NCBI GenBank assembly: GCA_038062955.1
Contig: JBBTWE010000001.1
Span: 3,927-67,926, forward strand
From: Patescibacteria group bacterium
GTDB taxonomy: Bacteria > Patescibacteriota > Minisyncoccia > Phycocordibacterales > BOKC01
Direction: 5' to 3'
Length of the DNA stretch: 64,000 nt
Each line of letters begins with the position of its first letter. Position 1 is the stretch's first letter. Shown piece after piece: positions 18,731-41,543 of the stretch. The notes under the pieces were generated by a model. That model had not been told where the DNA came from. It saw only the letters and a program-made list of their open reading frames with translations, and ran no database searches. A program made the position numbers and the translations under genes.

Positions 18731-18737
18731 TAGCTCT

Positions 18738-26331: not shown

Positions 26332-27819
26332 ATGATTCACGAAAAAATGAAAAAAGAAAATAAAATTACAAATAATGATAAAAGGAAAGCTTTCCTAATT
26401 TGGGCTGATAACGGCCCAGAGGTAAATTATCTTATAAAGTCTTTAGAAGAACACTCCTGCAAAGTTGTCTATTGGGTTGGAAAAACCGAAAATACAAGCG
26501 AATTTCCTGAAATTATTTTTCACGACCACTATGCGGCATGGGCAGGTTTGCCACCCAAAAACGGAAGCGAAGAAAATTGTCTCCCTCCCTCTAAAGAATT
26601 AATAAAAAAAATGGCCGAAACAGAGTCGCTCGTTTTAAGTATGATGAATAAAAAATTTGATATTCTATCAGTGGATGAAAGAAGGCACCTCTATTATAGG
26701 ATGCTGGGCTACTGGGATACTATAATTCGGAAATATAAACCTTACATTATTATTTTCCCTGCTGTACCTCATACAGTATACAATTTTATTATTTATTCTC
26801 TCGCTAGGGAGTATAAAATAAGAACAGTTATGTTTGAGGATTCTTGGGTTTCAGACAGACTTTTAATGTATCGTGATTGGAGAGAGGGTAGTCTAAATTT
26901 ACATCTTGCATTACAGCGAAATAAGAACAAAAACTTTCGCTTGTTAGATCTAACTGAAGACCTTCAAGAATATTGGAAGTCACATAATGATCCTAAAAAT
27001 GATGTCACCCCAATTTACATCAATAATGCAAGAAAAAAATTCAGCACTTTTAACAAGATGCTAGCTAGGGTCAAAATTGCCAAGGAATCCTTGAAAAATG
27101 GAACTCTTTTAACTCGTTGTTGGAGTTATTATAGGAAACAGTTCAAGTCTAATCTTAAAAAAGAATACGAAAGTTTACAGTTTAAACCGAAATTTGATAT
27201 TGACTACTTGTATGTGCCTCTTTCTTTTCAGCCTGAGCGCACTACAAGTCCTCAGGGAGATGTGTATGGTGATCAGATTCTTATGATTGAAACTTTGTCG
27301 AAGGCGCTTCCCCCAGATCTAACCGTATACGTGAAAGAGCATCCAGCACAATGGCTTATGAGAAGTAATATAAATTATTCAAGTTCCAGATATGAGGGAT
27401 ATTATAAAAAGATTGCAAATCTCACAAATGTAAAACTCGTCCCGTTTGACACTAGTACCTATGATTTAATCAACGCGGCAAAGGCTGTGGTTGTGTGTGC
27501 TGGTACTGCTGGATGGGAAGCAATCATGCGATGTAAGCCAGTAATAAATTTTGGTTATCCATGGTATCGTGATTTTAAGGGAATATTTAAGGTAGAAAGC
27601 GTAGAATCTTGTAAAGTAGCTGTGGAGAAAATCATGGGCGGATATAAAATTACGGAGCAGGACATCATAAATTTTCTTAAGAGTTTTGGGGAGGCGTCAA
27701 GCAGGGCATATATTGAGAGTATGGTAGAAAAAATATCCAAATTAAGTAAAAAGGAAAGTATGGAAATTCTAACCAAACTTATTATTGCAGATACTCAAGA
27801 TATAACTTCTAACAAATGA
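26332..27819 (+). CDS. Capsule_synth family protein (KpsS/KpsC-like), second copy
   Basis: LSFQPE and VKEHPA motifs shared with 22601..24196. Confidence 0.5.
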   Translation: MIHEKMKKENKITNNDKRKAFLIWADNGPEVNYLIKSLEEHSCKVVYWVGKTENTSEFPEIIFHDHYAAWAGLPPKNGSEENCLPPSKELIKKMAETESLVLSMMNKKFDILSVDERRHLYYRMLGYWDTIIRKYKPYIIIFPAVPHTVYNFIIYSLAREYKIRTVMFEDSWVSDRLLMYRDWREGSLNLHLALQRNKNKNFRLLDLTEDLQEYWKSHNDPKNDVTPIYINNARKKFSTFNKMLARVKIAKESLKNGTLLTRCWSYYRKQFKSNLKKEYESLQFKPKFDIDYLYVPLSFQPERTTSPQGDVYGDQILMIETLSKALPPDLTVYVKEHPAQWLMRSNINYSSSRYEGYYKKIANLTNVKLVPFDTSTYDLINAAKAVVVCAGTAGWEAIMRCKPVINFGYPWYRDFKGIFKVESVESCKVAVEKIMGGYKITEQDIINFLKSFGEASSRAYIESMVEKISKLSKKESMEILTKLIIADTQDITSNK

Positions 27820-28244
27820 GAACAAAAAATGTAAAAAAAACGTCTCGACTTTCGAGGTTAAAAGATACCGGGAGATTTGCTATTGGTGTTGACGTCGAAA
27901 ATATTAGCAGATTTAAAGAGATGGATACACCATCATTTTCTGCATTCTTACGAAAAATATTTACTTCCAAAGAACTAGAGTATTGCTTTTCCAAGAAAAA
28001 TTCTTCTCAACATCTTGCTGTAAGGTTTGCGGGAAAAGAAGCAGTAATCAAAATACTTCGGGGATTAGGGGAAAGATATTTGAAAAATCCAGTTGGATAT
28101 AGTCAAATAGAAATACTAAACGATAAAAATGGAGCACCGTTTCCTCGCATCACTCTTCCGAAGTACAAAGACCTCAATATTATTATAAGCTTTTCCCATT
28201 CAAAAGAAATTGCGATAGCTTTTGCTGTGATGATCGACATATAA
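27816..28244 (+). CDS. acpS: holo-[acyl-carrier-protein] synthase (4'-phosphopantetheinyl transferase)
   Basis: IGVDVENISRF, FTSKELEYC, VRFAGKEAVIKIL, ISFSHSKE pattern of AcpS. Confidence 0.7.
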   Translation: MRTKNVKKTSRLSRLKDTGRFAIGVDVENISRFKEMDTPSFSAFLRKIFTSKELEYCFSKKNSSQHLAVRFAGKEAVIKILRGLGERYLKNPVGYSQIEILNDKNGAPFPRITLPKYKDLNIIISFSHSKEIAIAFAVMIDI

Positions 28245-28260
28245 CAATTTGTAAACATTT

Positions 28261-30033
28261 ATGCCAACTCTTTCAGAATACCTTGCCCGCTCCAAAAAAA
28301 TAGAGCGTACAAAACATAGTAAGCATCAAAAAGGAAACAACAAATCCCTCAAAATTGCCCTGCTGTCTTCTTCAACAATCCAGGCCTTGAAGGAGGTTTT
28401 GTCGGTAAAATGTCATGATGCTTTTATTAAAGCAGACGTTTATCTGTCAGGTTATAATCAATATGTTCAAGAGATTTTGAACAAGAAAAGTGGTATTTAC
28501 AAATTTAATCCCGACATAGTTTTTCTTTTTATAGACACCATATCATTGCTTGGAAATGCCTACTTTCGTCCATATAAAGATTCTTCTATGTGGGGCAAAA
28601 AATGGGTAAATGATAAAAAAGAAGAAATTATCGCTCTTTTAGACACTCTTTCGAAAAAACTTTCTGGTAGAATCGTGGTGCATAATTTCGAGGTGCCCAC
28701 TTTCTCTCCTCTCGGTATTGCTGAAACCAGAGAAGAGTCAGGATTTATTGAAAGTATTCGGGGCCTTAACGTCGCTCTACAGGATTTTTATAAGAATAGC
28801 CAACAGATTTTTGTTTTTGATTATGAATTATTTTGTTCCTACATAGGGAAAGATAGGATGCGGGACGATAAAATGTATTACATTGCTGACTACAAAATCA
28901 ATCCACAGTATATTCCCGCGCTTTCGGAGGGATATATGGCGTATATAAAGCCCACTGCTTCTATTATTAAAAAATGTCTTGTATTAGATTTAGACAATAC
29001 TTTGTGGGGTGGAATTATCGGGGAGGATGGTCTTGCTGGAATAAAACTCGGGCCAACACCAGAAGGGCGACCATTTTGGGAATTCCAAAACTACATTCTC
29101 TCTTTACGTGATCGTGGCATAATACTTGCGATCAATAGCCGAAACAATCCTAGGGATGCTCTTGAAGTTTTTCAGAAACATCCCTCTATGATTTTGAAAG
29201 AGGAGCATTTTGCTAGTGTAAAGATAAATTGGAATGACAAGGTAGACAATATGCGGTCTATTGCAAATGAATTAGGCATTGGCCTTTCGAGTATGGTTTT
29301 TATTGATGATGATCCATCAAACAGAGAGATAATTAAGAGATCTCTTCCTGAAGTTCTTGTCGTCGACTTACCTAGTGATCCATCTTTGTATTTAAAGGCT
29401 GTAAAAGAGATAAATGATTTTAATGTATTACAAATTACCAGAGAAGATTTAAAAAAAGGCGAAATGTATCTTGACCAGAAAAAGCGCAAAGAACTTCTAA
29501 GTTCTTCGAGTACATTAGAAGATTATTTTAAAAAACTAGAGACTGTTGTCGTCGTCCAAAAAGCGAATATTCCCAATATTCCAAGAATTGCTCAACTTAC
29601 TCAAAAGACAAATCAATTTAATCTGACCACTAAGAGATATACTGAAAAAGAGATAAGTAACATGGTTGATAAGGGCTATCTTGTTGTTTCGGTTTCAGTA
29701 AAAGATAAGTTCGGAGATAATGGAATCGTTGGGGTTGTGATTGTGGAAAGAAAGAATAATATCTGGCGAATTGATACATTGTTACTAAGTTGTCGGCTGA
29801 TAGGAAGGGGAGTGGAAAAGGTGCTTTTGGGTTATGTGCTGAATTTGGCCAAAAAAGAAGATGCTGACATAGTCGTAGGCGTATATATTCCGACTGAAAA
29901 AAATATGATGACCAAAGATTTTTATAAGCAAAATAATTTTTGTGAGAAGAAAGTCAAAGGGGAAATAGTTTGGGAGCATAATTTGCAAGATAAGTATGTT
30001 TATCCCGATTTTCTCACTGTAGAAGAAAAATAA
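28261..30033 (+). CDS. FkbH-like HAD-IIIC domain protein with C-terminal GNAT-like domain (putative glyceryl-ACP loader)
   Basis: CLVLDLDNTLWGGIIGEDG hallmark of FkbH/HAD-IIIC; followed by ACP. Confidence 0.7.
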   Translation: MPTLSEYLARSKKIERTKHSKHQKGNNKSLKIALLSSSTIQALKEVLSVKCHDAFIKADVYLSGYNQYVQEILNKKSGIYKFNPDIVFLFIDTISLLGNAYFRPYKDSSMWGKKWVNDKKEEIIALLDTLSKKLSGRIVVHNFEVPTFSPLGIAETREESGFIESIRGLNVALQDFYKNSQQIFVFDYELFCSYIGKDRMRDDKMYYIADYKINPQYIPALSEGYMAYIKPTASIIKKCLVLDLDNTLWGGIIGEDGLAGIKLGPTPEGRPFWEFQNYILSLRDRGIILAINSRNNPRDALEVFQKHPSMILKEEHFASVKINWNDKVDNMRSIANELGIGLSSMVFIDDDPSNREIIKRSLPEVLVVDLPSDPSLYLKAVKEINDFNVLQITREDLKKGEMYLDQKKRKELLSSSSTLEDYFKKLETVVVVQKANIPNIPRIAQLTQKTNQFNLTTKRYTEKEISNMVDKGYLVVSVSVKDKFGDNGIVGVVIVERKNNIWRIDTLLLSCRLIGRGVEKVLLGYVLNLAKKEDADIVVGVYIPTEKNMMTKDFYKQNNFCEKKVKGEIVWEHNLQDKYVYPDFLTVEEK

Positions 30034-30037
30034 AATT

Positions 30038-30277
30038 ATGAAAAGAGTAAGGAAAATTCTATCAGATGTTTTGTCTATAAGGGAGAACACTATTACAGAT
30101 AAAACATCTCCTAGTAATACGGAAACGTGGGATTCTTTCAATGCACTTATGATTGTTTCGGAATTGGAACGGGAATTTAAGATAAGTTTTACCTTTGAGG
30201 AAATTGCGGAGGTCACTTGTGTAGGGGATATCACAAAAGCATTAGAAAAAAGGGGAATAAAACTCCATGATAAATAA
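30038..30277 (+). CDS. acyl carrier protein
   Basis: 79 aa; TWDSFNALMIVSELEREF with DS phosphopantetheine serine. Confidence 0.65.
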   Translation: MKRVRKILSDVLSIRENTITDKTSPSNTETWDSFNALMIVSELEREFKISFTFEEIAEVTCVGDITKALEKRGIKLHDK

Positions 30278-30695
30278 AGCTAAAAAACTTTCATATACTG
30301 AGATAAAAGTAGGAGACTCGTATTCTTTTTCTGAAATTGTAACTGCTGACAAGGTTTATGAATTTGCGAGATTGACCGGTGATTATAATCCATTGCACGT
30401 TAACCTTAAGTTTGGAAAGCGAAGTATTTTTGGTAACAATATTGCGCATGGCATGTTTGTGGCAAGTTTTTTTTCAAAATTGATTGGTATGTATTGCCCA
30501 GGAGAACGATCATTGTATTTAAGTCAAACGCTTAATTTTAGAAAACCTGTTTTTTTTAATGACAAAATTACTGTTAATGGAACAGTTACAGACAAAGCGG
30601 ATAGTTTCAATATTGTAAGTATTAAAATGGAAATTTCAAAAGAGGGAATAGTTTTAGTTGACGGGATAGCTATGATAAAAGTACTTCCAATATGA
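30267..30695 (+). CDS. MaoC-like (R)-specific dehydratase, hot-dog fold
   Basis: GDYNPLHVNLKFGKRSIFGNNIAHGMF. Confidence 0.7.
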   Translation: MINKAKKLSYTEIKVGDSYSFSEIVTADKVYEFARLTGDYNPLHVNLKFGKRSIFGNNIAHGMFVASFFSKLIGMYCPGERSLYLSQTLNFRKPVFFNDKITVNGTVTDKADSFNIVSIKMEISKEGIVLVDGIAMIKVLPI

Positions 30696-31441
30696 AAACA
30701 ACAAAAACAGTATTAATAGTTGGAGGAAACGGAGGTATAGGAGCCTCGACAGTCAATTTATTTGCAGCAAAGGGGTGGATGGTATATTACACATATTACA
30801 AAAATAAAAAAACAGATTTTGAAAACAAATTTCCCAATACTATTGGGATAAGCTGTGATGTAACTAAAAATCAAGATATTAAAAAAGTAGCAAAAAAAAT
30901 AAAAGAAGATGGTTTCTCTGTAGATGCAGTTATATATTCTGTAACCACTCATTTGACACTCCAGCCCTTCGAGGATATCCCTATTAAAGTATTTGAAGAA
31001 GATATTGAAATCATTCTCATTGGAGCTATAAGAATCTTTCAGGTTTTGATTCCTCTTATGAAAAAAGAGGCTCAAAGTGTAATTATTCCCATAATAACTT
31101 CTTCGGTTATATCTACACCCAAAAGGATGTCTTCGTATGTTATTGCCAAATTCGGTCTTTTGGGGCTTGTAAAAAGCCTTGCTGTTGAAATATCACAGTT
31201 GGGGATTAGGGTTGTCGGCCTATCACCTTCGTTTGTAGAAACTTCACTTCTTAAAGCTTTTCCAGCCAAGATGCTTGAGTTAGAAAAATCTAAACTTCAA
31301 AATGGAAAATTTATCAGCCCTGAAGAAATTGCCAAAGTTCTGGATTCTATTATTTGTGACAAAGAGAAATTTTTAACAGGAGAAAATATTATTGTAAATA
31401 ATAGTCAGGACGTTGCAAGATTGATAGAAGAAAATAAATGA
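30692..31441 (+). CDS. short-chain dehydrogenase/reductase (FabG-like)
   Basis: VLIVGGNGGIGAS Rossmann; YVIAKFG (YxxxK). Confidence 0.75.
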   Translation: MKTTKTVLIVGGNGGIGASTVNLFAAKGWMVYYTYYKNKKTDFENKFPNTIGISCDVTKNQDIKKVAKKIKEDGFSVDAVIYSVTTHLTLQPFEDIPIKVFEEDIEIILIGAIRIFQVLIPLMKKEAQSVIIPIITSSVISTPKRMSSYVIAKFGLLGLVKSLAVEISQLGIRVVGLSPSFVETSLLKAFPAKMLELEKSKLQNGKFISPEEIAKVLDSIICDKEKFLTGENIIVNNSQDVARLIEENK

Positions 31442-32247
31442 TTCCACTCAAAAAATCAAAATTTATTTTTTCGTATAATAACCAGAATTACGAAAAGCTT
31501 GATATTTTTCAGGCTCTTCGTAATCTAGGAATAAAACATGGGGACTCGGTATTTGTGCACTCCGATGTTGCAAGGTTCGGCAAGATTATACCGGGGACTA
31601 AAAGAGATGAGTATTTAGAGGCATTCTTAGATGCTCTTAAGGATGCGGTAGGCAGAAATGGCAATGTTATCATGCCTTCCTTTACGTACTCATTTTGTAA
31701 AAAAGAGATTTTCTACCCACTCTATTCTCCTTCCACGGTAGGAATTCTTAGTGAGTATTTTCGAAAACAATCAGGCGTGTCACGCAGTTTAGACGCTATT
31801 TTTTCAGTCGCAGCGTATGGTCCACTAAAATCTTATTTTACTAAAGTTGGAACAAATTGTTTCGGGGAAAATTCTATTTTTGAGAAGTTGTATTTGAAAA
31901 ATGTAAAAATTGTCTTTGTTGGAAACACTTTTGATATAACCTACATGCATTTTATTGAACAGAGGTTTGGTGTTCCGTATCGTTTTATGAAAAAATTTGA
32001 AGGAAAAATAGAGGTTGACGGTGAATTAAAAAGATATACGTTCGACTATAATGTTAGAGATCTCGAAGTTGATGTGGTATATAATTTGGAAAAAATTGCT
32101 AGATTTTTAGAGAATCGAGGAGTTCTTAGTACTGTAAAACTCGGATATTCTAAGATAAGAATTATTAGTGCAGTCAATGCCTATGACGTTTTATTCGAAG
32201 GATTAAAAAACAATGTATGGTTGTTATGCAAAAAAAAGAAAAAATAA
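31438..32247 (+). CDS. AAC(3)-family (Antibiotic_NAT) N-acyltransferase
   Basis: LGIKHGDSVFVHSDVARFG...GNVIMPSFTY matches AAC(3) N-terminal pattern. Confidence 0.6.
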   Translation: MIPLKKSKFIFSYNNQNYEKLDIFQALRNLGIKHGDSVFVHSDVARFGKIIPGTKRDEYLEAFLDALKDAVGRNGNVIMPSFTYSFCKKEIFYPLYSPSTVGILSEYFRKQSGVSRSLDAIFSVAAYGPLKSYFTKVGTNCFGENSIFEKLYLKNVKIVFVGNTFDITYMHFIEQRFGVPYRFMKKFEGKIEVDGELKRYTFDYNVRDLEVDVVYNLEKIARFLENRGVLSTVKLGYSKIRIISAVNAYDVLFEGLKNNVWLLCKKKKK

Positions 32248-32253
32248 AATTAT

Positions 32254-33558
32254 ATGAATAAAATAAAAATTGAAAAAAAACAAGATTCTGGAAAGAAAAT
32301 GTATAGTCTCATGGAAAGGCTCTACCCCCTAACTCGTAGTATCACAGGTAATGGTACGAGACAGACGCTTAATATAATTAAGGAGTATATTCCTATTATT
32401 ATTAATGAAGTACCAACTGGAACCCCAGTGTTTGATTGGATAATTCCCAAAGAATGGAATATCACTGATGCCTATGTAAAAAATTCGAAAGGTGAGCGAG
32501 TCATTGATTTTAAAAAAAATAATCTTCATGTTTTAAGTTATAGTCAGCCTGTCAATACAAAAATGACACTTGAGGAACTAAAGCCGCATTTATATACACT
32601 CCCTGAACAGCCGGATGTTATTCCATATATGACTACGTATTACAAAGAAGGATGGGGTTTTTGTCTCTCTCATCAATCATTCAGTGGGTTGAAGGAAGAT
32701 ATGTACGAAGTAGTAATTGAGTCAACTCTCTCTCAGGGTTCTCTCACCTATGCCGAACTGTACATCAAAGGAGAGACAAAAGATGAAATTATTTTTTCAA
32801 GTTATATGTGCCATCCATCAATGTGTAATGATAATTTGAGTGGCCCAGTTTTATTAACCGCACTTGTAGAAGGCATGATTGGTAAAAAACATCGATACTC
32901 ATACCGTTTTTTGTTGGTTCCAGAGACTATTGGTGCTTTGGCATGGCTTTCTAGAAATGATAATAACCTTGCAAGTGTGAAAGGTGGTCTTGTAATAACT
33001 TGTGTCGGAGACTCTGGTGATATGACATATAAAAGAAGTAAACAGGGTGATGCATACATTGATAAGGTGGTAGAAAAAGTACTGAGGGATACTGGTTCTC
33101 CACATAAAGTAATAGATTTTTTCCCGATGGGTAGCGATGAGAGACAGTTTTGTTCCCCTGGTTTTAATTTACCAATGGGTTCTTTGGTTCGGACTCTTTA
33201 CGGCTGTTTTCCCGAGTATCACACTTCAGCTGATGACTTAGATTTTGTTAAAGCTGAGTATCTAGAAGATTCTTTAATGAGATACCGGGAAGTGGTGGAG
33301 GTCTTAGAGTGGAATGAAACATACATAAATCAAAGCTCGAAAGGTGAACCGCGACTTGATAAACGAGGCCTGTACCGCGCGATTGGTATCAAGACCAATA
33401 CAAAAATGGAAGAAGCAATATTATGGACTCTAAGTTTTTCTGACGGACAATATTCTCTCTTAGATATAGCGAATAGGTCTTCAATGTCATTTGCGCTCAT
33501 AAAAGAAGCGAGTATGCAGTTAGTAGAGCATGGGTTATTGAAAACAAAGACAGATTGA
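32254..33558 (+). CDS. DUF4910/aminopeptidase-like domain protein (C. jejuni Cj1295-like)
   Basis: M28-like core; recalled co-occurrence with AAC(3)-like genes in Pse modification loci. Confidence 0.5.
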   Translation: MNKIKIEKKQDSGKKMYSLMERLYPLTRSITGNGTRQTLNIIKEYIPIIINEVPTGTPVFDWIIPKEWNITDAYVKNSKGERVIDFKKNNLHVLSYSQPVNTKMTLEELKPHLYTLPEQPDVIPYMTTYYKEGWGFCLSHQSFSGLKEDMYEVVIESTLSQGSLTYAELYIKGETKDEIIFSSYMCHPSMCNDNLSGPVLLTALVEGMIGKKHRYSYRFLLVPETIGALAWLSRNDNNLASVKGGLVITCVGDSGDMTYKRSKQGDAYIDKVVEKVLRDTGSPHKVIDFFPMGSDERQFCSPGFNLPMGSLVRTLYGCFPEYHTSADDLDFVKAEYLEDSLMRYREVVEVLEWNETYINQSSKGEPRLDKRGLYRAIGIKTNTKMEEAILWTLSFSDGQYSLLDIANRSSMSFALIKEASMQLVEHGLLKTKTD

Positions 33559-33696
33559 ATAAATTAAAATAGTGTGCTACTATTTCCAAATTATCCTATA
33601 GTTTAGGCATATGTATAAATTAACTTTATAACTTTCAATTTTTAACTTTTCCGCCAAAATACTGGCGGATTCGCCTCAGGCGGAATAACTATCACC

Positions 33697-34722
33697 ATGT
33701 GGACCGTAAAAACAAAACTAGATTTTCTTAAAGGAAAGACCATGCTCGTAACAGGTGGTACTGGTTCATTTGGCAAAAATTTTATTCGTTTGCTTGCCGA
33801 TAAATCAAAATTAAAAAAGATAATCGTCTTTTCAAGAGACGAACTCAAGCAGTCAGTAATGCAGGCCGAATTTAAAAACGATCCGAGATTACGCTTTTTT
33901 CTAGGAGATGTTCGTGATTCGCGTCGTCTTGAGCGTGCTTTTCATGGCGTAGATATTGTGGTTCATGCGGCTGCTTTGAAACAAGTGCCGGCTCTCGAAT
34001 ACAACCCTTTTGAAGCGGTGCAGACCAATATTTTGGGAACTCAAAATGTTCTTGATGCGGCGATTAACACTGGGGTAAAAAAGTTATTACTAATTTCGTC
34101 CGACAAGGCGGCTCATCCGGTAAATCTTTATGGCGCCACAAAACTTTGCGCCGAAAGATTGGTTGTCGCAGGAAATGCTTATTCTGATGGTGTTACTCAA
34201 TCTTCATGTGTTCGTTATGGAAACGTGGTTGGTAGCCGAGGTAGTATTGTGGATGTTCTTCTTCGCAACAAACACAAAAAAGAAGTTTATATTACCGATG
34301 AACGAATGACCAGATTTTGGCTGGGGCTTGAGGATGCTTTTGATTTGGTGCTTTTTGCTTTAGGAAAAATGGAAGGTGGCGAGATATTTATTCCGAAAGC
34401 GCCTTCAATGACAGTTAAAGATCTATTTGAAAATATAGTTCCCAACGCTAAAAGAAAAACGATTGGTATCAGGCCAGGAGAAAAACTTCACGAAATTTTG
34501 TTAACTCGCGATGAAGCTAGACACTCTGTTGATTTGGGAGACTACTATGTTGTATTACCCGAACACGAGACGGCTCCAAATCAGACAAAGATGAAGAAAT
34601 ACCACGCAACTGGTAAAAAAGTTCATCCAGAATTTTCTTTTGAAAGTCACACCAATACTAAGAAACTTTCAAATAAAGATTTAATGGCGATAGTAGAAAA
34701 AATGGCAAAAATTCTTGAGTAA
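33697..34722 (+). CDS. pseB: UDP-N-acetylglucosamine 4,6-dehydratase (inverting), PseB/FlaA1-like
   Basis: MLVTGGTGSFGKNF, YGATKLCAERL, TRFW motifs. Confidence 0.8.
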   Translation: MWTVKTKLDFLKGKTMLVTGGTGSFGKNFIRLLADKSKLKKIIVFSRDELKQSVMQAEFKNDPRLRFFLGDVRDSRRLERAFHGVDIVVHAAALKQVPALEYNPFEAVQTNILGTQNVLDAAINTGVKKLLLISSDKAAHPVNLYGATKLCAERLVVAGNAYSDGVTQSSCVRYGNVVGSRGSIVDVLLRNKHKKEVYITDERMTRFWLGLEDAFDLVLFALGKMEGGEIFIPKAPSMTVKDLFENIVPNAKRKTIGIRPGEKLHEILLTRDEARHSVDLGDYYVVLPEHETAPNQTKMKKYHATGKKVHPEFSFESHTNTKKLSNKDLMAIVEKMAKILE

Positions 34723-34780
34723 GAGACAAAAGAAATAATTTTAAATCTTAAATTATTAAAAATCATAAATCTTAAATCCA

Positions 34781-35887
34781 ATGATTCCATACGGTAAACA
34801 ATCAATAGATCAGAGTGATATCGACGCAGTAGTTGAGACCTTAAAATCTCCATTTTTAACTCAAGGTCCAAAGGTCAAAGAATTTGAAGAAAAGTTAGCT
34901 GCCTACTCTGGCGCAAAATATGCCGTGGCTGTTTCAAATGGTACTGCGGCTTTACACGTTGCTTATTTAGCGGCAGGAATAAAAGCCGGGGATGAAGTTA
35001 TAACATCTCCTAACACATTTGTGGCTACATCTAATATGTTACTCGTAATTGGTGCGAAGCCGGTTTTTTGTGATCTCCGACCTGATACTTGCAATATTGA
35101 CGAAACGAAAATCGAAAAACTTATCACCAAAAAAACAAAAGCGATTGTTCCTGTGCATTTTGCTGGCAATCCTTGCGACATGGACAAAATAAAATCTATC
35201 GCAAAGAAACACAAACTTCTCGTGATTGAAGACGCTTGTCATGCACTCGGGGCGAGTTTCAAAGATAAGAAAATTGGATCTATTGGCGATATGAGCGTCT
35301 TTAGTTTTCATCCTGTAAAATCAATTACAACTGGCGAGGGTGGAGCAATCTTGACTGACAATAAAAAATTCTACGAAAAAATGCTTACCTTGCGAAGCCA
35401 CGGAATTCATAAAGATAAAAAAGGACTTGTTGTTATGACCCATATGGGATGGAACTATCGCATTACGGACATCCAGGCCGCTCTCGGCGTCTCCCAGTTA
35501 AAAAAACTTGATGGTTTTATTGATGCGAGAAGACAGGTTGTTAAATGGTACGAAGAAGCTTTTAAGGGTGCAGGTGGAATCATCCTGCCAAAAGAAACTG
35601 CAGGTTCAAAGTCCGCCTGGCACGTTTATGTAATCAGAGTTAAAAATAAAAAAGATCGTTTTCCTCTTGCAAATTTTCTTAAAGAAAAGGGAATTGGAAT
35701 TAATTTTCATTATCCTGCCGTTTACGGTCAACCATATTATAGAAAAAATGGTTATGCTAAGACAAAATTAAAAGAGGCTGATTTATATAATATTACCGCA
35801 ATTACTCTACCTCTTTTTCCAAACTTGAGCCGTCAGGAGGTGAAGCTTATTGTGCGAAGCATTAATGAGTATTTTATAAAAAATTAA
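34781..35887 (+). CDS. pseC: DegT/DnrJ/EryC1 PLP-dependent UDP-4-keto-sugar aminotransferase (PseC-like)
   Basis: FSFHPVKSITTGEGG PLP-lysine region; GWNYRITDIQAALG. Confidence 0.8.
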   Translation: MIPYGKQSIDQSDIDAVVETLKSPFLTQGPKVKEFEEKLAAYSGAKYAVAVSNGTAALHVAYLAAGIKAGDEVITSPNTFVATSNMLLVIGAKPVFCDLRPDTCNIDETKIEKLITKKTKAIVPVHFAGNPCDMDKIKSIAKKHKLLVIEDACHALGASFKDKKIGSIGDMSVFSFHPVKSITTGEGGAILTDNKKFYEKMLTLRSHGIHKDKKGLVVMTHMGWNYRITDIQAALGVSQLKKLDGFIDARRQVVKWYEEAFKGAGGIILPKETAGSKSAWHVYVIRVKNKKDRFPLANFLKEKGIGINFHYPAVYGQPYYRKNGYAKTKLKEADLYNITAITLPLFPNLSRQEVKLIVRSINEYFIKN

Positions 35888-35897
35888 ATATACTATT

Positions 35898-36857
35898 GTG
35901 ATTAAAAAAATTGCGTGGGGGACAAGCAAACTATTAGAAATGTATCTACGGCAAACAAAATCTAATCCGTTTAGTTATTGCATCGATGATTTTACAAAGC
36001 GTGATATGTTTTGTGGATTACAGGTAAAAAGATCGACTACGTTATCGAATGAAAAGAAAGGGGAATTCTTGATGGTTATTTTTGCCGTTTCAAATGAAGC
36101 TCTTCAAGAAATATCTTCTTCCCTTAGATCCAGTGGGCTGTCATATGGAAAAGATTTTATTTTTTATTCAGACTTTTTCCGTCCTAATTTTGAAAAAAAG
36201 ACCGAGAAACTTCTGGGAATTAAACTGAACAACGATCTTTACAGATATGCGTTATCTTTTACTTTAAATTCGAGAACATCCATTCATACGACCATATTGG
36301 GGACGTGGTTGTTTCTTGAATTGGTAAAAAAAGTTGATTCTTTGCATGGCCAAATTGCTGAAGTCGGTTCTTTTCAGGGTGGAAATGTGCTATGTGCTCT
36401 TAATTTTATGGCGGCGGCAGGATTACACCCTAAAAAATATTATGCCTTCGATTCATTTGAGGGTTTTCCGGAATTAAGTGAATTTGATCCAAAAAGTTTT
36501 CGGCGTGGTGATCATTCTATAAAAGTGATTCCGCAGGAGATAATGGATAAATTTGTTATTTTTCCAAATGCGAAAATTGTCAAAGGTTTTATCCCGAAGA
36601 CTTTTAGTCATATTGGTAATAACGAACGATTCGCATTAGTTTTTTACGATTGCGATCTATACGAGCCGGCACTTGCGACTTATAAGTATTTCTGGGATAA
36701 AATAGTCCCTGGAGGATATATGGTGATACATGATTATGAGACTCAAACAGGCGGTTTTACTGGAGTCAAGAAAGCATCCGAGGAATTCTTCGGTCCATTA
36801 GGTGTTGTTCCTACATCTTTTTTTGAGAATACCATGGCTGTAATAAAAAAACAGTGA
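35898..36857 (+). CDS. TylF/MycF-family SAM-dependent (O-)methyltransferase with N-terminal extra domain
   Basis: EVGSFQGG...FDSFEGFP...FYDCDLYE...GGYMVIHDY. Confidence 0.55.
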   Translation: MIKKIAWGTSKLLEMYLRQTKSNPFSYCIDDFTKRDMFCGLQVKRSTTLSNEKKGEFLMVIFAVSNEALQEISSSLRSSGLSYGKDFIFYSDFFRPNFEKKTEKLLGIKLNNDLYRYALSFTLNSRTSIHTTILGTWLFLELVKKVDSLHGQIAEVGSFQGGNVLCALNFMAAAGLHPKKYYAFDSFEGFPELSEFDPKSFRRGDHSIKVIPQEIMDKFVIFPNAKIVKGFIPKTFSHIGNNERFALVFYDCDLYEPALATYKYFWDKIVPGGYMVIHDYETQTGGFTGVKKASEEFFGPLGVVPTSFFENTMAVIKKQ

Positions 36858-37924
36858 AAGTCATACCATACGATAAAACAAGAAAGAATGAATGGGATGC
36901 TTTTTGCATTGCGAGTGATGATGCATGGTTTTGGCATACATCAGATTGGTTGGAATATACAATTAATTATAAACCGGAGCTAACAACTACCGATTTAAGT
37001 TTTTTGGTCTATGATCAGGACAAAATAGTTGCTATTGTTCCACTCACTTTGGAAAATACTTTATTGCTTACCGAAACGGTTAGAGAGTTTTCTTTTGGTG
37101 GATGGACTATTCCTGCGCCCGCATTGTTACCCGGGCTGTCTGTGGGTGAACGAGAATATCTCCACACATTTATTTTTAAGGAAATAGATAATCTAGCCAC
37201 TCAAAGTAATGTTGTTCGGGCAAGTTTCAGAATTAGTCCGCTTTCTTCAAATGAACGGGGAAATGTCCACTACAATTATCTTCTCCCTTTCGGGTATAGT
37301 GATGTTTCTCTGTTTACGAGAATTATTGATTTAAATAAAAGACCGGAGGAATTGTGGAATGATCTTCGGCGGAATCATAAACGCAGTATAAAAAAAGTCA
37401 GTGATTTTAAGGTATCTTTTTTTTCATCTGAAAACATAACTAAAGAAATCTTTGATGAGTACAAAAAAATGCATCATAAGGCCGCTGGACGTAAGACCCG
37501 CCCGGACATTACTTTTGAAATGATGTTTGACTGGATTCAAGATAATCTCGGTTTCTTGGGGGTGGTGGAATATCGGGGTGAAAGAATCGGTTTTGAGTAT
37601 TACACAATATATAAAAATAAAGCATATGGATTTTCTGCCGCTAACGAGCCCGCATATTCTTATTTGCCCATACGACCGATTTTGGAATGGGAAGCTATGT
37701 TATGGATGAAGAAAAAAGACATCTCTACCTATGAAATCGGTGTAGATTATTATGGAACCCTGCCTTATGATGTGCCGGATTCTGAACAGTTAAACATCTC
37801 TCATTTTAAAAGAGGTTTTGGTGGAGTTCCCGTCCCATTGATAATGGCTGAAAAATTTTATAACAAGGATTACTTCCTAAAAATGACTGATTATCGAGCA
37901 CACCGTTTTGCTTCAACGTTATGA
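36854..37924 (+). CDS. FemAB/Acetyltransf_6-like GNAT-fold acyl/aminoacyl transferase (putative)
   Basis: Overall length and pattern; weak. Confidence 0.4.
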   Translation: MKVIPYDKTRKNEWDAFCIASDDAWFWHTSDWLEYTINYKPELTTTDLSFLVYDQDKIVAIVPLTLENTLLLTETVREFSFGGWTIPAPALLPGLSVGEREYLHTFIFKEIDNLATQSNVVRASFRISPLSSNERGNVHYNYLLPFGYSDVSLFTRIIDLNKRPEELWNDLRRNHKRSIKKVSDFKVSFFSSENITKEIFDEYKKMHHKAAGRKTRPDITFEMMFDWIQDNLGFLGVVEYRGERIGFEYYTIYKNKAYGFSAANEPAYSYLPIRPILEWEAMLWMKKKDISTYEIGVDYYGTLPYDVPDSEQLNISHFKRGFGGVPVPLIMAEKFYNKDYFLKMTDYRAHRFASTL

Positions 37925-38889
37925 TAACTACGAAATTAATTATTATAGGTTTTGGCTCAATCGGACAGAGACACTATAAAAATCTCCTTTCTCTTGGGTA
38001 TGAAAATGTTTATGTTTACGATGTAGATCCAAAAAAGATTCAAGATTCAAGATTCAAGATTCAAGATTTAGATGAAAAGACACTAAAAGATTTTAATGTC
38101 GCTTTTATAACCAACCCGACCCACTTACATGTTGAAACAGCTTTGCTTGCGGCCAAAGCCGGTTGTCATTTGTTTATCGAAAAACCCCTTTCTCATAATC
38201 TAAAAGGTATAAAGAATCTAATAGAAGTTGCTAAAAAGAAAAAGAGTATTGTGATGGTTGGATGCAATTATAGATTCAACAAAGGTTTTAAAATGTTAGA
38301 AGAGGTTGTGAAGAATAAAAAATTCGGTGATCCATTATTGTCTCGAGTGGTGATCAGTCAAAATTTAATTAAGTCTCGGCCTGGAGTTGATTTCAAGACT
38401 ACCTATGCGGCGCAATCAAAATTTGGCGGCGGAGTTATATTAGATTCTGGATCGCACGCTGTTGATTATCTCTCTTCTCTATTTGGTTTCGGCAAATGCG
38501 TTTCTGCCTACTCCGAAAAAAATGACAAACTTGATATAGACGCGGAACACTCGGCTAATTTTATTTTGAAGCATAAAAATGGGGTTGTATCGGAAGTCAG
38601 TCTGGACTATTTCGGTGAACCTAAAAAGCATTCTTTAGAAGTGCAATTTAAAAATGGTTCTGTTAAATGGAATTTTGCCGGAAATACAATCGAGACTTAC
38701 GATAGCAAAAGTGGGGAATCAAAAATCACTTCGATTTACGGAGCGAGTGAGATAGAATCGGCTCGAAATGATATGTATGTGGAAGAGTTGCGACATTTTT
38801 TAAATGCGGTTAAATATAGTGGACCCGTAATCAATGATTTGGAAAATGCGTTTGAGGTTATGAAAATATTAATTAAAGCCAAAAAATAA
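37921..38889 (+). CDS. Gfo/Idh/MocA-family NAD(P)-dependent oxidoreductase
   Basis: IIIGFGSIGQRH Rossmann N-terminus; contains in-frame heptamer repeat. Confidence 0.7.
   Translation: MITTKLIIIGFGSIGQRHYKNLLSLGYENVYVYDVDPKKIQDSRFKIQDLDEKTLKDFNVAFITNPTHLHVETALLAAKAGCHLFIEKPLSHNLKGIKNLIEVAKKKKSIVMVGCNYRFNKGFKMLEEVVKNKKFGDPLLSRVVISQNLIKSRPGVDFKTTYAAQSKFGGGVILDSGSHAVDYLSSLFGFGKCVSAYSEKNDKLDIDAEHSANFILKHKNGVVSEVSLDYFGEPKKHSLEVQFKNGSVKWNFAGNTIETYDSKSGESKITSIYGASEIESARNDMYVEELRHFLNAVKYSGPVINDLENAFEVMKILIKAKK
38036..38070 (+). repeat. in-frame heptanucleotide tandem repeat (agattca)x4+agattta
   Basis: Encodes KIQDSRFKIQDL; same heptamer family as 8395-8436. Confidence 0.65.
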
Positions 38890-38892: not shown

Positions 38893-40200
38893 ATGGCAAA
38901 AACAAATAAAAAAAGAATTTTGCAAAAATCTAAAATCCTTCTTGAAAAGGCCGAAAAAATTATTCCTAGAGGCGCTCAAACCTTAAGCAAAGCGCCAGAT
39001 CAGTTTATTCGTGGCGTTTCTCCCTATGCAATTGCAAAAGGTAAGGGCTGTCATGTCTGGGATGTCGATGGAAATAAATATATAGATTTAGCTTCCTCGC
39101 TCGGCGCGATTGTTTTGGGGCATCAATTTCCTCTTGTTGAAAAAGCAATAAAGAAACAGAGAAAAAACGGGACACTATTTTCTCTCCCCGGGGAATTGGA
39201 AGTCGAGCTCGCAGAAAGAATTAAAAAAATGATTCCTTTTATGGAAAAGATGCGTTTTGGTATGAATGGTTCTGATGCAACGTCTGGTGCTATTCGTGTT
39301 GCCCGAGCTTATACCGGGAGAGACCATGTTGCTAAGTGCGGTTATCATGGTTGGACTGATTGGTCTATTGCAACCAATCCGCTTCGAAGCAAAGGTGTGC
39401 CACAAGTGGTTAAGGATCTGACCCATGAATTTAAATATAACGATATTGGAAGTTTGGAGAAAATTTTTGAGGATCATTCAGGAAAAGTCGCAGCTGTTAT
39501 CTTAGAGCCAGTAAGTACTGTGTTGCCAGAAAAAGATTTTTTGAATGAAGTAAAAAGGTTGGCTCATAAAAACGGAGCAGTATTGATTTTCGATGAATTA
39601 GTAACAGGCTTCAGATTAGCTAGGGGAGGTGCGGCGGAATATTTCAAAGTCGAACCAGATTTGGCTTGTTATGGGAAAGCAATTAGTAATGGTGAGCCGC
39701 TTTCAGTCTTTGGGGGCAAAGGCGAAATCATGGATGTTTTAAGCGGGCAGGACGTGTTCTACTCTTTTACCTATGCCGGATATCTTCCCTCAATTGCAGT
39801 TGCGATAGAAGTACTCAAATTCATGGAAAAAAACAATGTCCAGAAAAAACTTTGGAAAACCGGAGAATTACTTATCGCCAAATACAAAAAACTTACGGAA
39901 AAATATAAAGTGCCAACAAAAGTAACTGGAATCGGGCCTCACCCAATTTTTGCTTTTAAAGATGAGAAAGGGGGAGATAATCTCGCTCTCAAAAGTTTAT
40001 TCTTGCAGGAAACAGCTAAGCGTGGAATTTTGACCAACTGTTCGAATCTCACGAACTATTCTCATGAAGTTAAAGATATTGAAGAAGTATCTAAACGATT
40101 GGAAGAAATTTTTGTAATTATAGAAAAAGCGGTTCGAGAAAATAAAGTTGAAGAAAGGTTGGAGGGGCCTATGATACGCCCTCGCAGCAAACCCCTCTAA
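38893..40200 (+). CDS. class III PLP aminotransferase (glutamate-1-semialdehyde aminomutase-like)
   Basis: DELVTGFRLARGG, CYGKAISNG (PLP lysine). Confidence 0.75.
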   Translation: MAKTNKKRILQKSKILLEKAEKIIPRGAQTLSKAPDQFIRGVSPYAIAKGKGCHVWDVDGNKYIDLASSLGAIVLGHQFPLVEKAIKKQRKNGTLFSLPGELEVELAERIKKMIPFMEKMRFGMNGSDATSGAIRVARAYTGRDHVAKCGYHGWTDWSIATNPLRSKGVPQVVKDLTHEFKYNDIGSLEKIFEDHSGKVAAVILEPVSTVLPEKDFLNEVKRLAHKNGAVLIFDELVTGFRLARGGAAEYFKVEPDLACYGKAISNGEPLSVFGGKGEIMDVLSGQDVFYSFTYAGYLPSIAVAIEVLKFMEKNNVQKKLWKTGELLIAKYKKLTEKYKVPTKVTGIGPHPIFAFKDEKGGDNLALKSLFLQETAKRGILTNCSNLTNYSHEVKDIEEVSKRLEEIFVIIEKAVRENKVEERLEGPMIRPRSKPL

Positions 40201-41521: not shown

Positions 41522-41543
41522 ACCTCCTATAATACAAACTAAT

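Follow-up and report, generated by a model that had tools for sequence, protein, structure and literature searches.

Known carrier-protein and pseudaminic acid systems

In Campylobacter jejuni pseudaminic acid (Pse) is modified with a di-O-methylglyceroyl group on N5 and Cj1295 is required for this modification (PMC3068675). Enzymes of the FkbH type convert 1,3-bisphosphoglycerate to glyceryl-ACP (PMC7489565), and D-lactate-ACP was described as the product of an FkbH loading module (PMC7901079). CA_C2195, a DUF4910 protein with a crystal structure, is devoid of the canonical catalytic Asp and Glu of the M28 family. Its authors preferred transacylation to a simple amidase reaction, which counts against the N-acyl swap suggested below, and they published the neighbourhood of DUF4910, ACP, HAD-phosphatase and NeuB genes already in 2014 (PMC4000134). 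For the accessory enzymes (the Cj1295-type set) we found no open-access paper giving them a biochemical role, in line with the preliminary description of the locus.

Gene inventory of the locus

Here, we analyse a 64-kb stretch (hereafter the window) from a groundwater Patescibacteria genome, in which a seven-gene cassette most likely assembles a small three-carbon acyl group on a carrier protein and transfers it to a surface sugar of the pseudaminic acid type. Families were assigned with Pfam and NCBIfam, and an ORF check located all genes named in the preliminary description in a single dense plus-strand run, each with the family and position claimed for it (Table 1). PseB, PseC and PseI were judged against NCBI curated cut-offs and all three pass. 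Only two wider gaps, 138 bp upstream of PseB and 58 bp upstream of PseC, interrupt the genes between 26332 and 40200, which otherwise overlap or are separated by 3–16 bp. AcpS and the gene before it share 4 bp, and the starts of the GFO/IDH/MocA oxidoreductase and class-III aminotransferase genes overlap the preceding gene or are 3 bp from it. WecB is also encoded in the window.

Table 1. Positions and family assignments of genes in the window (scores in bits)
Gene product	Position	Strand	Assignment and remarks
MBOAT	17252-18730	+	profile match
GDSL/SGNH protein	18681-19997	+	profile match
Capsule_synth / BFO_1060-like protein	22601-24196	minus	candidate nonulosonate transferase
ABC exporter	24533-26320		between two Capsule_synth / BFO_1060-like genes; candidate export
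Capsule_synth / BFO_1060-like protein	26332-27819	+	candidate nonulosonate transferase
AcpS	27816-28244	+	PF01648, 62
FkbH	28261-30033	+	FkbH_N; TIGR01686 317 vs cut-off 147
ACP, stand-alone	30038-30277	+	PP-binding 29.5 vs cut-off 20.8; DS motif
MaoC dehydratase	30267-30695	+	PF01575, 75; hydratase-2 motif LTGDYNPLH
SDR	30692-31441	+	adh_short_C2, 121; GGNGGIG and YxxxK motifs
Antibiotic_NAT / AAC(3)-like	31438-32247	+	PF02522, 122
DUF4910+DUF2172+HTH_47	32254-33558	+	358
PseB, inverting UDP-GlcNAc 4,6-dehydratase	33697-34722	+	TIGR03589 424.9 vs cut-off 407.75
PseC aminotransferase	34781-35887	+	TIGR03588 465.1 vs cut-off 423.5
TylF-like O-methyltransferase	35898-36857	+	PF05711, 60
FemAB-like / Acetyltransf_6	36854-37924	+	PF13480 27; TIGR04421 73, below cut-off
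GFO/IDH/MocA oxidoreductase	37921-38889	+	profile match; same operon
Class-III aminotransferase	38893-40200	+	profile match; same operon
CTP_transf_3 cytidylyltransferase, candidate CMP-nonulosonate synthetase	42693-43451	+	PF02348 139; PseF model 46.5 vs cut-off 205.7
PseI pseudaminic acid synthase	46885-47955	+	TIGR03586 410.4 vs cut-off 340.25
GNAT, weak PseH candidate	51561-52016	+	Acetyltransf_3 65; PseH model 47.4 vs cut-off 93.1

The expectation that further nonulosonate genes lie nearby holds for the synthase PseI but less so for the GNAT protein, which is only weakly PseH-like (47 vs 93). The PseH and PseF candidates of the window both fail their curated cut-offs and profile searches of the window found no PseG; both results count against the N-acyl swap.

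Recurrence in other genomes

The genes AcpS-FkbH-ACP-MaoC-SDR-AAC(3)-like-DUF4910 form a genuine unit that recurs. Their arrangement is beyond chance: all seven are found in identical order in three unrelated metagenomic contigs (L092, L095 and L096), and fusions additionally link members of the cassette. The proteins of the L092 cassette are 43–61% identical to those of the window, and L011 contains a similar cassette with the SDR missing. A NeuB-family synthase adjoins each of the four full DUF4910 cassettes (window, L092, L095, L096). Homologues of the CTP_transf_3 protein are contiguous with PseC and PseB in L052 (53% identity) or stand beside NeuB/DegT in L092 (42%), and L025 and L043 both have Capsule_synth / BFO_1060-like genes in the vicinity of their FkbH cassettes; L096 also carries a Capsule_synth gene.

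These contexts bear on two alternatives. In the first, which we consider quite improbable, the acyl group goes not to Pse but to another amino sugar within the glycan, with the GFO oxidoreductase and the class-III aminotransferase as candidate source of the amine. Both genes and WecB are indeed present in the window, and in L005 and L006 AcpS-FkbH-ACP-(MaoC)-AAC(3) is found beside WbpA/B/E-like genes with nonulosonate genes absent, but the synthases beside all four full cassettes and the position of PseB and PseC directly after the window cassette speak for Pse. In the second, the cassette supplies a polyketide, tetronate or lipid pathway and not a glycan. All characterised FkbH enzymes belong to polyketide or tetronate pathways (PMC7489565) and the Campylobacter FkbH is adjoined by FabH and a second ACP. 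Nevertheless, this alternative is very improbable: the neighbouring genes are all glycan genes, and a search of the 64 kb revealed neither a ketosynthase nor an acyltransferase domain nor any PKS/NRPS gene. Close homologues are located in sugar and nonulosonate loci and not in lipid or polyketide ones.

The cassette was initially regarded as a novelty of CPR genomes. It is widespread and not special to them, being found in Campylobacter, in Woesearchaeota, in many metagenomes and in numerous bacteria and archaea that have not been cultured. In Beckwithbacteria it occurs with a different acyl-building module.

Predicted loading and building of the acyl group

We hold it about evenly balanced whether the region 27816-33558 represents a carrier-protein-dependent N-acyl-swap cassette that serves the adjoining pseudaminic acid pathway; this is the reading followed here. 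AcpS is predicted to act as phosphopantetheinyl transferase that primes the dedicated ACP of the cassette at its serine motif (WDSF). Among the 44 loci with an FkbH at least 40% identical, 32 have an AcpS next to it, and in 64 of 87 loci FkbH is followed by an ACP.

The loader consists of an FkbH_N domain, a HAD-IIIC phosphatase with the motif LDLDNTLWGG and a C-terminal Cys domain, and matches PDB 3slr (E=2e-53). An alignment that takes in the Campylobacter protein shows no variation at D243/D245, S293, K327, D349/D350 and S510-C511-R512, and the HAD motif DxDxT and the cysteine of the C-terminal SCR triplet are likewise invariant in it. Since characterised FkbH enzymes do so, it would dephosphorylate 1,3-bisphosphoglycerate and transfer D-glycerate via the conserved cysteine to the ACP, forming glyceryl-S-ACP.

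MaoC adjoins the ACP in 24 of 87 FkbH loci. FabH was found neither in any of these 24 loci nor in the window, so that glyceryl-ACP would be the sole substrate available to MaoC. This (R)-hydratase/dehydratase is predicted to dehydrate glyceryl-ACP at the 3-hydroxyl to pyruvoyl-ACP in its enol form, and the SDR, which also comes after MaoC in L007, L013, L042, L092, L095 and L096, is predicted to reduce the 2-keto group to lactyl-ACP. These two steps are suggested by gene order, by the lack of any ketosynthase and by polyketide synthases whose lactate loading modules have the composition FkbH-DH-KR. The glyceroyl group proposed at first needs correction, because with MaoC and SDR present and ketosynthase absent a lactyl-type group is more likely. 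Fusions of MaoC with AAC(3) (P0271, P0277, P0280, P0281 and P0287) are also known.

Possibly, the TylF-family enzyme O-methylates the ACP-bound hydroxyacyl (lactyl) group or the sugar; in sister loci a methyltransferase embedded in the cassette may take this role. TylF-like genes are located up to 3 kb from FkbH in seven loci and, in L092, between FkbH and ACP, and in L095 a class-I methyltransferase is placed between SDR and AAC(3).

Predicted transfer to the sugar

The AAC(3)-like protein is far under all cut-offs of the AAC(3) resistance models (65 vs 270) and has a conserved T168..H171..E174 motif. At every locus where such a gene was seen an ACP module adjoins, of the FkbH type in L005, L006, L011, L014, L092, L095 and L096 and of the LuxC/LuxE/AMP-ligase type in L093. 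AAC(3)-like genes track carrier-protein modules of differing kinds. The enzyme is predicted to N-acylate a sugar amine, with acyl-S-ACP replacing acetyl-CoA.

Alternatively, acyl-ACP could be the donor for the MBOAT and the GDSL protein, which would attach the acyl group to hydroxyls of the exported glycan on the outer side of the membrane, either in place of N-acylation or alongside it. DltC, DltB and DltD act analogously with D-alanine. In 10 further loci, all without AAC(3), an MBOAT homologue (34–48% identity) adjoins an FkbH-ACP(-MaoC-SDR) cassette; one of them is the Adlerbacteria locus L008, with MBOAT directly upstream of AcpS. The window's own glycan cluster contains both MBOAT and GDSL genes. 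We regard this route as improbable, however, as 9 kb, including genes on the opposite strand, separate the window MBOAT from the cassette, the SDR stop codon is overlapped by the AAC(3)-like gene, and MBOAT and AAC(3) are mutually exclusive in 17 informative loci. The window MBOAT is of the type accompanying FkbH cassettes elsewhere, an observation that counts against the N-acyl swap.

For the N-acyl swap itself an amine has to be set free. The DUF4910/DUF2172/HTH_47 protein belongs to the Cj1295 / CA_C2195 family with its mono-zinc M28-like fold and matches PDB 3k9t (E=2e-158); compared with this structure it keeps the zinc-ligand segments CHPSMCNDNLSG and YHTSAD (ligands according to PMC4000134). 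It is predicted to be a sugar de-N-acetylase that strips the resident N-acetyl group and exposes the amine. AAC(3)+DUF4910 fusions (P0029, P0050, P0104, P0116 and in L092) and parallel GNAT + CE4 deacetylase pairs, which fill the equivalent slots in the FkbH cassettes of L042, L052, L056 and L058, suggest that both enzymes act consecutively. AAC(3) is found without DUF4910 in L005/L006 (WbpB/WbpE-like) and L014, where neighbouring pathways make a fresh amine. Against the swap counts L094, with DUF4910 in a dTDP-sugar locus and no ACP or AAC(3) nearby.

The acylated amine is most probably the one that ends up as N5 of the sugar, the position modified in Campylobacter Pse5(di-O-methylglyceroyl)7Ac, and N5 appears more likely than the N7 favoured in the preliminary description: the C. 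jejuni group is a Cj1295-dependent one on N5 (PMC3068675), and a DUF4910 partner fits an N-acetyl swap. Were the acyl group instead placed on the 4-amino group newly formed by PseC (N7 of Pse), the AAC(3)-like enzyme would stand in for PseH and DUF4910 would act otherwise, for example in preparing N5 for the FemAB-like enzyme. This reading is supported by the low PseH score of the GNAT protein, by the cassettes of L005, L006 and L014, which must acylate a fresh amine directly, by L093 and the window, which both have a third gene of acyltransferase type next to AAC(3)/DUF4910, and by Tannerella forsythia Pse5Am7Gra, where glyceroyl is on N7 (PMC5378307). We consider it rather unlikely, since the sole experimentally characterised product of a DUF4910 locus bears its glycerate-derived acyl group on N5, with N7 carrying acetyl or acetamidino (PMC3068675), and the fusions and GNAT + CE4 pairs argue for consecutive action.

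The FemAB-like protein may carry out a second transfer, of an N-acyl or aminoacyl group. An Acetyltransf_6 gene comes after AAC(3)-DUF4910 also in L093; its product and the FemAB-like protein of the window have no detectable sequence similarity. The product of the N-acyl swap would be CMP-Pse bearing a C3 hydroxyacyl or methoxyacyl amide, and the Capsule_synth-like transferases would place this modified Pse on the surface glycan.

Comparison with Campylobacter

In the window MaoC and SDR are separate genes, whereas Campylobacter lari has a 452-aa MaoC+SDR fusion protein inside its cassette. Together with the annotation of cj1301 as epimerase (PMC7099621) this renders doubtful that C. jejuni lacks these two functions, as had been assumed. 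The Campylobacter product retains both glycerate oxygens although its locus has MaoC-SDR, so these enzymes need not make a lactyl group. C. jejuni NCTC 11168 still produces the di-O-methylglyceroyl sugar with its AAC(3)-like gene, cj1296/7, out of frame or phase-OFF (PMC3068675 Table 1; PMC13130089), so that the transferase of this strain may be another enzyme than the AAC(3)-like one.

The order in Campylobacter is pseB-pseC-DUF4910-AAC3-MT-ACP-MaoC/SDR-FkbH-FabH-ACP and differs from that of the window; to call both loci syntenic was too strong, since they have their content in common but are not collinear. The flagellin glycosylation locus of C. lari comprises the same families. Its positional orthologues of Cj1295 and Cj1296/7 are clearly similar to the window proteins (DUF4910 41%, E=1e-101; AAC(3)-like 40%, E=4e-50), as the preliminary description had led us to expect, with 29% identity for the FkbH-like protein and 48% for PseB.

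Gene content and packing of the locus

The preliminary description had listed the genes of this region with their positions; the ORFs lie exactly there and the family assignments hold against Pfam and NCBIfam models. Between 26332 and 40200 neighbouring genes overlap or are separated by 3–16 bp, with the exception of a 138-bp gap ahead of PseB and one of 58 bp ahead of PseC. The single strong promoter-like site, also the best one, precedes position 24291; otherwise the scan for promoters and terminators stayed at chance level. The setting is a large glycan locus with several GT4 glycosyltransferases, MBOAT and GDSL genes, WecB, an ABC exporter, a Wzy_C-TPR protein and two Capsule_synth/BFO_1060-like proteins.

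Features of the window, with model scores and cut-offs in bits
Feature	Position (strand)	Size	Observation
SAM synthetase	9040-10032 (-)
SAM riboswitch	10331-10430 (-)		56, gathering score 44; ahead of SAM synthetase
MBOAT	17252-18730		85
MBOAT + GDSL	17252-19997		GDSL 33.7, cut-off 32.9
Capsule_synth/BFO_1060-like	22601-24196 (-)	~500 aa	weak similarity to both families
Capsule_synth/BFO_1060-like	26332-27819 (+)	~500 aa	weak similarity to both families
Cassette, AcpS to DUF4910	27816-33558
AcpS			16 bp upstream of FkbH
FkbH		590 aa	TIGR01686 317.1, cut-off 146.65; FkbH_N 61, cut-off 27
ACP		79 aa	4 bp downstream of FkbH
MaoC			hydratase-2 motif LTGDYNPLH
SDR			follows MaoC
AAC(3)-like			Antibiotic_NAT PF02522 122, cut-off 25
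DUF4910/DUF2172/HTH_47 protein			358, 135 and 73, each above its cut-off
PseB			424.9, cut-off 407.75
PseC			465.1, cut-off 423.5
TylF-like methyltransferase, FemAB-like	to 37924		after PseB, PseC
HAD-IA phosphatase	40916-41593 (-)		start overlaps that of the kinase by ~120 bp
APH-family kinase	41472-42659 (+)		directly upstream of cytidylyltransferase
Cytidylyltransferase			CTP_transf_3 139; PseF model 46.5, cut-off 205.7
GC-rich island	44400-46650		50-63% GC, genome ~35-38%; between EamA transporter and PseI
ORF in island	44799-45623 (-)	274 aa	no Pfam/NCBIfam match
ORF in island	45811-46644 (+)	277 aa	no Pfam/NCBIfam match; hydrophobic, membrane-like
PseI			410.4, cut-off 340.25
SucC-like (with ATP-citrate-lyase citrate-binding domain), SucD-like, citryl-CoA-lyase-like	47960-50795		between PseI and GNAT
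GNAT	51561		PseH model 47.4, cut-off 93.1
Wzy_C + TPR protein	52017-54233	738 aa

The pseudaminic acid (Pse) pathway is represented by PseB, PseC and PseI, which all pass the curated cut-offs. For PseH there is only the weak similarity of the GNAT, and the cytidylyltransferase stays below the cut-off of the PseF model. No match to PseG was found among the ORFs of at least 100 amino acids in the 64-kb window; this gene may be located elsewhere on the contig. In L052 homologues of the cytidylyltransferase directly adjoin PseC/PseB, and in L092 and L096 they are found close to NeuB (comparison loci from other genomes and metagenomes are designated by L and a number).

Several further features of the surroundings deserve mention. 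The GC-rich island may be foreign DNA inserted in the glycan locus. Together, the three genes following PseI look like an ATP-citrate lyase split into a citryl-CoA synthetase and a lyase; in a cell of minimal metabolism they could provide acetyl-CoA, or a different acyl-CoA, for the N-acylation of sugars. The TTG starts of the overlapping phosphatase and kinase ORFs were probably called too far upstream. The Wzy_C-TPR protein has a full-length homologue (33% identity) at 1394-3547 of the Adlerbacteria locus L008, which also has an MBOAT-AcpS-FkbH-ACP-MaoC-SDR cassette. The SAM riboswitch, together with the SAM synthetase, is located at the edge of this methyltransferase-rich locus; it was the only hit of an Rfam scan of the window and is unrelated to the cassette. 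In the metagenomic locus L095 metK, a PfkB-family kinase and an AdoHcy hydrolase directly follow the cassette. The two Capsule_synth/BFO_1060-like proteins are candidates for the transfer of the modified nonulosonate, and the BFO_1060 family presumably includes the Tannerella Pse/Leg transferase. The nonulosonate locus of Tannerella has BFO_1060 itself at its edge, as a hypothetical gene (PMC5378307). In L025 and L043 homologues of the two proteins are encoded close to FkbH cassettes.

Distribution and modularity of the cassette

Relatives at 50–65% identity number in the thousands for FkbH as well as for DUF4910, across bacteria and archaea; for the smaller AAC(3)-like clade there were 67 matches. 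The preliminary description expected the occurrence in a CPR-like genome, together with MaoC and SDR genes, to be new, but the cassette is not specific to CPR: it is carried broadly by bacteria and archaea and the window is one carrier of many. The complete series AcpS-FkbH-ACP-MaoC-SDR-AAC(3)-DUF4910 is found in the same order on three unrelated metagenomic contigs (L092, L095 and L096). In L092, with 43–61% identity to the window, a TylF gene separates FkbH from ACP, and AAC(3) and DUF4910 form one fused protein; in L095 a methyltransferase is placed between SDR and AAC(3). The neighbours of all three are a NeuB-family synthase, Polysacc_synt_2 dehydratases or DegT aminotransferases; CTP_transf_3 is present in two of them. 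A further locus (L011) contains a MaoC+AAC(3) fusion with DUF4910 and without SDR. Altogether, MaoC is fused to AAC(3) in five proteins and AAC(3) to DUF4910 in four.

A profile-guided scan revealed 80 further FkbH loci and neighbours were counted over 87 FkbH-anchored loci. ACP stands beside FkbH in 64 of the 87, AcpS in 33 (32 of the 44 loci with an FkbH at least 40% identical), MaoC in 24 and SDR in 11. TylF-like methyltransferases are neighbours in eight loci, AAC(3)-like genes in seven and DUF4910 in five. A NeuB-family synthase was counted 11 times and PseB of at least 40% identity eight times, each out of 87.

The slot of the transferase is occupied by the AAC(3)-like enzyme, by a GNAT right after SDR (L007, L013, L042) or by an MBOAT protein (ten loci). 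In the deacetylase slot a CE4 polysaccharide deacetylase, accompanied by a GNAT, can take the place of DUF4910 (L042, L052, L056, L058), and in L052 this pair adjoins PseB (58%), PseC (61–63%) and a cytidylyltransferase (52–53%). The GNAT and CE4 pair parallels the pair of AAC(3) and DUF4910. In Candidatus Beckwithbacteria (L093, GCA_001776045.1) the series AcpS-ACP-AMP-ligase-Fe-ADH-LuxE-LuxC is followed by AAC(3)-DUF4910-Acetyltransf_6; here the genes for transfer are the same and the module that builds the acyl group is of quite another kind. B12-binding radical SAM enzymes were observed beside FkbH cassettes in L092 (12097-13605 and 17395-18873), L012 (1321-2742) and L039, and they may represent further tailoring, e.g., C-methylation of the acyl group or of the sugar.

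Predicted formation of the acyl group on the carrier protein

The HAD-IIIC motifs of FkbH (D243-L-D245-N-T, S293, K327 and D349-D350) are invariant in 12 aligned sequences including Campylobacter lari, and so is S510-C511-R512. The cysteine of this C-terminal SCR motif corresponds to the acyl-enzyme cysteine of OzmB-type enzymes. By score and motifs the protein belongs to the glyceryl-ACP loader family, with a predicted use of 1,3-bisphosphoglycerate. FabH-type ketosynthases were found neither in the window (tblastn with C. lari FabH) nor in any of the 24 MaoC-containing loci; on this ground the reading that MaoC and SDR act on a FabH product was rejected, which leaves the product of FkbH as the only ACP-bound substrate open to MaoC. 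A polyketide or tetronate pathway was rejected as well since no ketosynthase or PKS gene is present across the 64-kb window.

Lactate loading is known from the FR901464 and bryostatin pathways. In the proposed sequence of steps MaoC would dehydrate a 2,3-dihydroxyacyl thioester to the enol of pyruvoyl-ACP, which would then be reduced to lactyl-ACP. The same logic is ascribed to the D-lactate-ACP from FkbH-containing PKS loading modules (PMC7901079). Methyltransferases inside the cassettes of L092 and L095 suggest O-methylation ahead of the transfer. A caveat to the lactyl step comes from Campylobacter, where MaoC and SDR are present in the locus although di-O-methylglyceroyl Pse keeps both glycerate oxygens.

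Comparison with the Campylobacter locus

The Campylobacter reference was the flagellin glycosylation locus of C. lari (L009/L010), collinear with Cj1289-Cj1305, in place of that of C. jejuni itself; the route to it was an AAC(3)-like homologue (P0292) with 40% identity. Its order is SurA-like, accC, accB, dcd, PseB, PseC, DUF4910, AAC(3)-like, methyltransferase, a 75-aa ORF, a 452-aa MaoC protein, a 507-aa protein, FabH, a 72-aa ORF and DUF2920; the two short ORFs are presumably the first and the second ACP. PseB is 48% identical between window and C. lari (E=7e-98), PseC 41% (E=4e-78), DUF4910 41% over 425 residues to the gene after pseC (E=1e-101) and the AAC(3)-like protein 40% (E=4e-50). 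FkbH aligns with the 507-aa protein at 29% identity over residues 227–523, i.e., the HAD and Cys domains (E=2e-35). The 452-aa protein combines an N-terminal SGDFNPIH hydratase motif with a Rossmann GASSGFG segment that aligns to the window SDR.

Both loci have PseB, PseC, DUF4910, AAC(3), ACP, MaoC, SDR, FkbH and a methyltransferase in common. The supposed synteny holds for the content, whereas the order is not collinear: AcpS-FkbH-ACP-MaoC-SDR-AAC(3)-DUF4910-PseB-PseC-methyltransferase in the window and PseB-PseC-DUF4910-AAC(3)-methyltransferase-ACP-MaoC/SDR-FkbH-FabH-ACP in C. lari. The supposed lack of MaoC and SDR in C. jejuni is doubtful, since C. lari carries both in fused form. Its methyltransferase is of class I and not of the TylF type. 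FabH and the second ACP are extra genes of the Campylobacter locus, from which AcpS is missing; extra genes of the window are those for FemAB-like, GFO and class-III aminotransferase proteins. With an intact HAD motif in FkbH, AAC(3)-like and DUF4910 proteins similar to those of C. lari and a glycan context, the preliminary description withstood the comparison in these respects.

The genes Cj1293-Cj1304 comprise pseB, pseC, Cj1295, Cj1296/7, a methyltransferase, acpP2, cj1301, cj1302, fabH2 and acpP3. Among them Cj1295 is a DUF2172 protein (PMC6321876), and cj1302 is named as an FkbH-domain gene and cj1301 as an ‘epimerase’ (PMC7099621). A search of the literature on Cj1295-Cj1302, DUF4910 and FkbH in Pse pathways yielded no biochemical study; apart from brief mentions it brought up one paper on genetics (PMC3068675) and one on structure and gene neighbourhood (PMC4000134).

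A proposed exchange of the N-acyl group

DUF4910 of the window matches PDB entry 3k9t (CA_C2195) with 531 bits (E=2e-158), and the zinc-ligand segments CHPSMCNDNLSG (identical) and YHTSAD are kept in the alignment. CA_C2195 has the mono-zinc ligands His189, Asp195 and His324 and a Ser instead of the M28 catalytic Asp (PMC4000134); by alignment to 3k9t all these features match in the window protein. As the canonical M28 catalytic Asp and Glu are missing in CA_C2195 its authors leaned to transacylation (PMC4000134). For C. jejuni it was reported that Cj1295 is needed for di-O-methylglyceroyl Pse with the group on N5 and not on N7 (PMC3068675), and removal of the N-acetyl group followed by re-acylation is the hypothesis of Hitchen et al. 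for Cj1295 at C5. In the same manner, DUF4910 would strip the resident N-acetyl group and the AAC(3)-like enzyme would then re-acylate the freed amine. This logic is favoured by the fusions of DUF4910 with AAC(3), by the absence of DUF4910 where the amine is fresh and by the pairs of GNAT and CE4 that fill the equivalent slots elsewhere. AAC(3) without DUF4910 stands beside fresh-amine pathways in the WbpA/B/E-like loci L005 (a Woesearchaeota MAG) and L006 and in the Leg/Neu-like locus L014; DUF4910 without any ACP was seen in a dTDP-sugar locus (L094). The preliminary description had placed the acyl group on N7; N5 is favoured here because of the single experimental anchor in C. jejuni.

The AAC(3)-like enzyme shares fold, Pfam family (PF02522) and the conserved T..H..E segment with the aminoglycoside 3-N-acetyltransferases. 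Its identity as an aminoglycoside resistance gene is ruled out by scores and glycan/ACP context: the best resistance model (NF033082, AAC_3) gives 64.8 bits with a cut-off of 270, other models are still further under their cut-offs, the best PDB match has 41 bits only, and each AAC(3)-like gene was seen in a glycan locus beside an ACP module. Acyl-ACP is a plausible donor because the phosphopantetheine arm of ACP is that of CoA. The situation in Campylobacter argues against AAC(3) as transferase there, since NCTC 11168 produces the modified sugar with a cj1296/7 that is out of frame or OFF (PMC3068675, Table 1; PMC13130089).

Tentatively, and with somewhat less than even confidence, we regard the cassette as one example of a modular system, of general occurrence, by which bacteria and archaea swap N-acyl groups on their surface sugars. 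Its four interchangeable parts would be a carrier-protein loader (FkbH or LuxE/AMP-ligase), enzymes that tailor the acyl group (MaoC, SDR, methyltransferase, radical SAM), a transferase (AAC(3)-fold, GNAT or MBOAT) and a deacetylase (DUF4910 or CE4). DUF4910 would then be a new class of mono-zinc nucleotide-sugar de-N-acetylase/transamidase and the AAC(3) fold an acyl-ACP-dependent sugar N-acyltransferase. If true, such a system would account for glyceroyl, di-O-methylglyceroyl, lactyl-type and similar amides on Pse and Leg and would cover the modifications of Campylobacter and perhaps of Tannerella.

Significance

N-acyl variants of Pse and Leg affect flagellar function, phage recognition and immune recognition. 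In Tannerella, Pse5Am7Gra bears a glyceroyl group and the paper on its Pse locus gives no annotation for the unassigned genes (PMC5378307). Already known are the neighbourhood of DUF4910 (2014, PMC4000134) and the Campylobacter genetics (2010); new is the explicit mechanistic model for a cassette that is otherwise known and biochemically uncharacterised. Recurrent gene order, two kinds of fusion, interchangeable slots, the lack of a ketosynthase and the Campylobacter MaoC-SDR fusion turn comparative data into a step-by-step hypothesis from which mass shifts of the ACP and masses of the CMP-sugars are predicted, and soluble stand-alone proteins from many lineages are open to test. Annotations of AAC(3) family members in such genomes should not be read as resistance genes. 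A dedicated AcpS/ACP pair for the decoration of glycans is retained even where the genome is very small (Patescibacteria, Woesearchaeota). It is the cassette as a class that is of value.

Relation to other known systems

Dlt D-alanylation employs a carrier protein, an MBOAT protein and an SGNH-like protein. A predicted small carrier-bound acyl group and MBOAT and GDSL genes in the same cluster are found in the window too, but the Dlt loader is an adenylating enzyme instead of FkbH. Homologues of the window MBOAT (34–48%) are located beside FkbH-ACP cassettes in ten loci (L008, L015, L017, L019, L020, L025, L033, L039, L072, L082), none of which carries an AAC(3)-like gene; this suggests a Dlt-like branch in which the glycerate-derived acyl-ACP feeds an extracytoplasmic O-acylation. 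The window has the MBOAT type that partners FkbH elsewhere, and a Dlt-like O-acylation is a less probable route there too. Its MBOAT and GDSL genes lie 9 kb upstream of the cassette and not next to the carrier protein.

The transfer to a sugar amine has a counterpart in Vibrio cholerae O1, where the RfbK-RfbO tetronate module N-acylates perosamine. The idea is the same, an acyl group built on a dedicated ACP in an O-antigen locus and then passed to an amino sugar, but the acyl-building enzymes are others and FkbH is absent. The match of DUF4910 to 3k9t leads to the locus CA_C2186-CA_C2199 of Clostridium acetobutylicum (PMC4000134), which by its published neighbourhood represents the same cassette. 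This neighbourhood comprises a NeuB-type synthase, a nucleotidyltransferase, an ‘aminosugar N-acetyltransferase’, ACP and an ‘N-acetyltransferase + HAD phosphatase’; MaoC, SDR and AcpS are not in the list, the HAD protein was not called FkbH and no glycerate-derived acyl group was proposed (PMC4000134).

The glycerate modules of PKS systems (methoxymalonyl-ACP, tetronates and lactate starters) have in common with the window an FkbH with HAD motifs and Cys, a stand-alone ACP and a DH-type enzyme, a KR-type enzyme and an O-methyltransferase for the ACP-bound C3 unit (PMC7489565; PMC7901079). They differ in that the window has no ketosynthase or PKS, that the dehydratase is of MaoC type and not a PKS DH and that the predicted acceptor is a sugar amine reached via the AAC(3) fold. 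Each function of a PKS lactate loading module (FkbH, dehydratase, ketoreductase and ACP) is encoded in the window by a protein of its own, four in all, and the cassette may work like an FkbH-DH-KR lactate module without being a member of this group.
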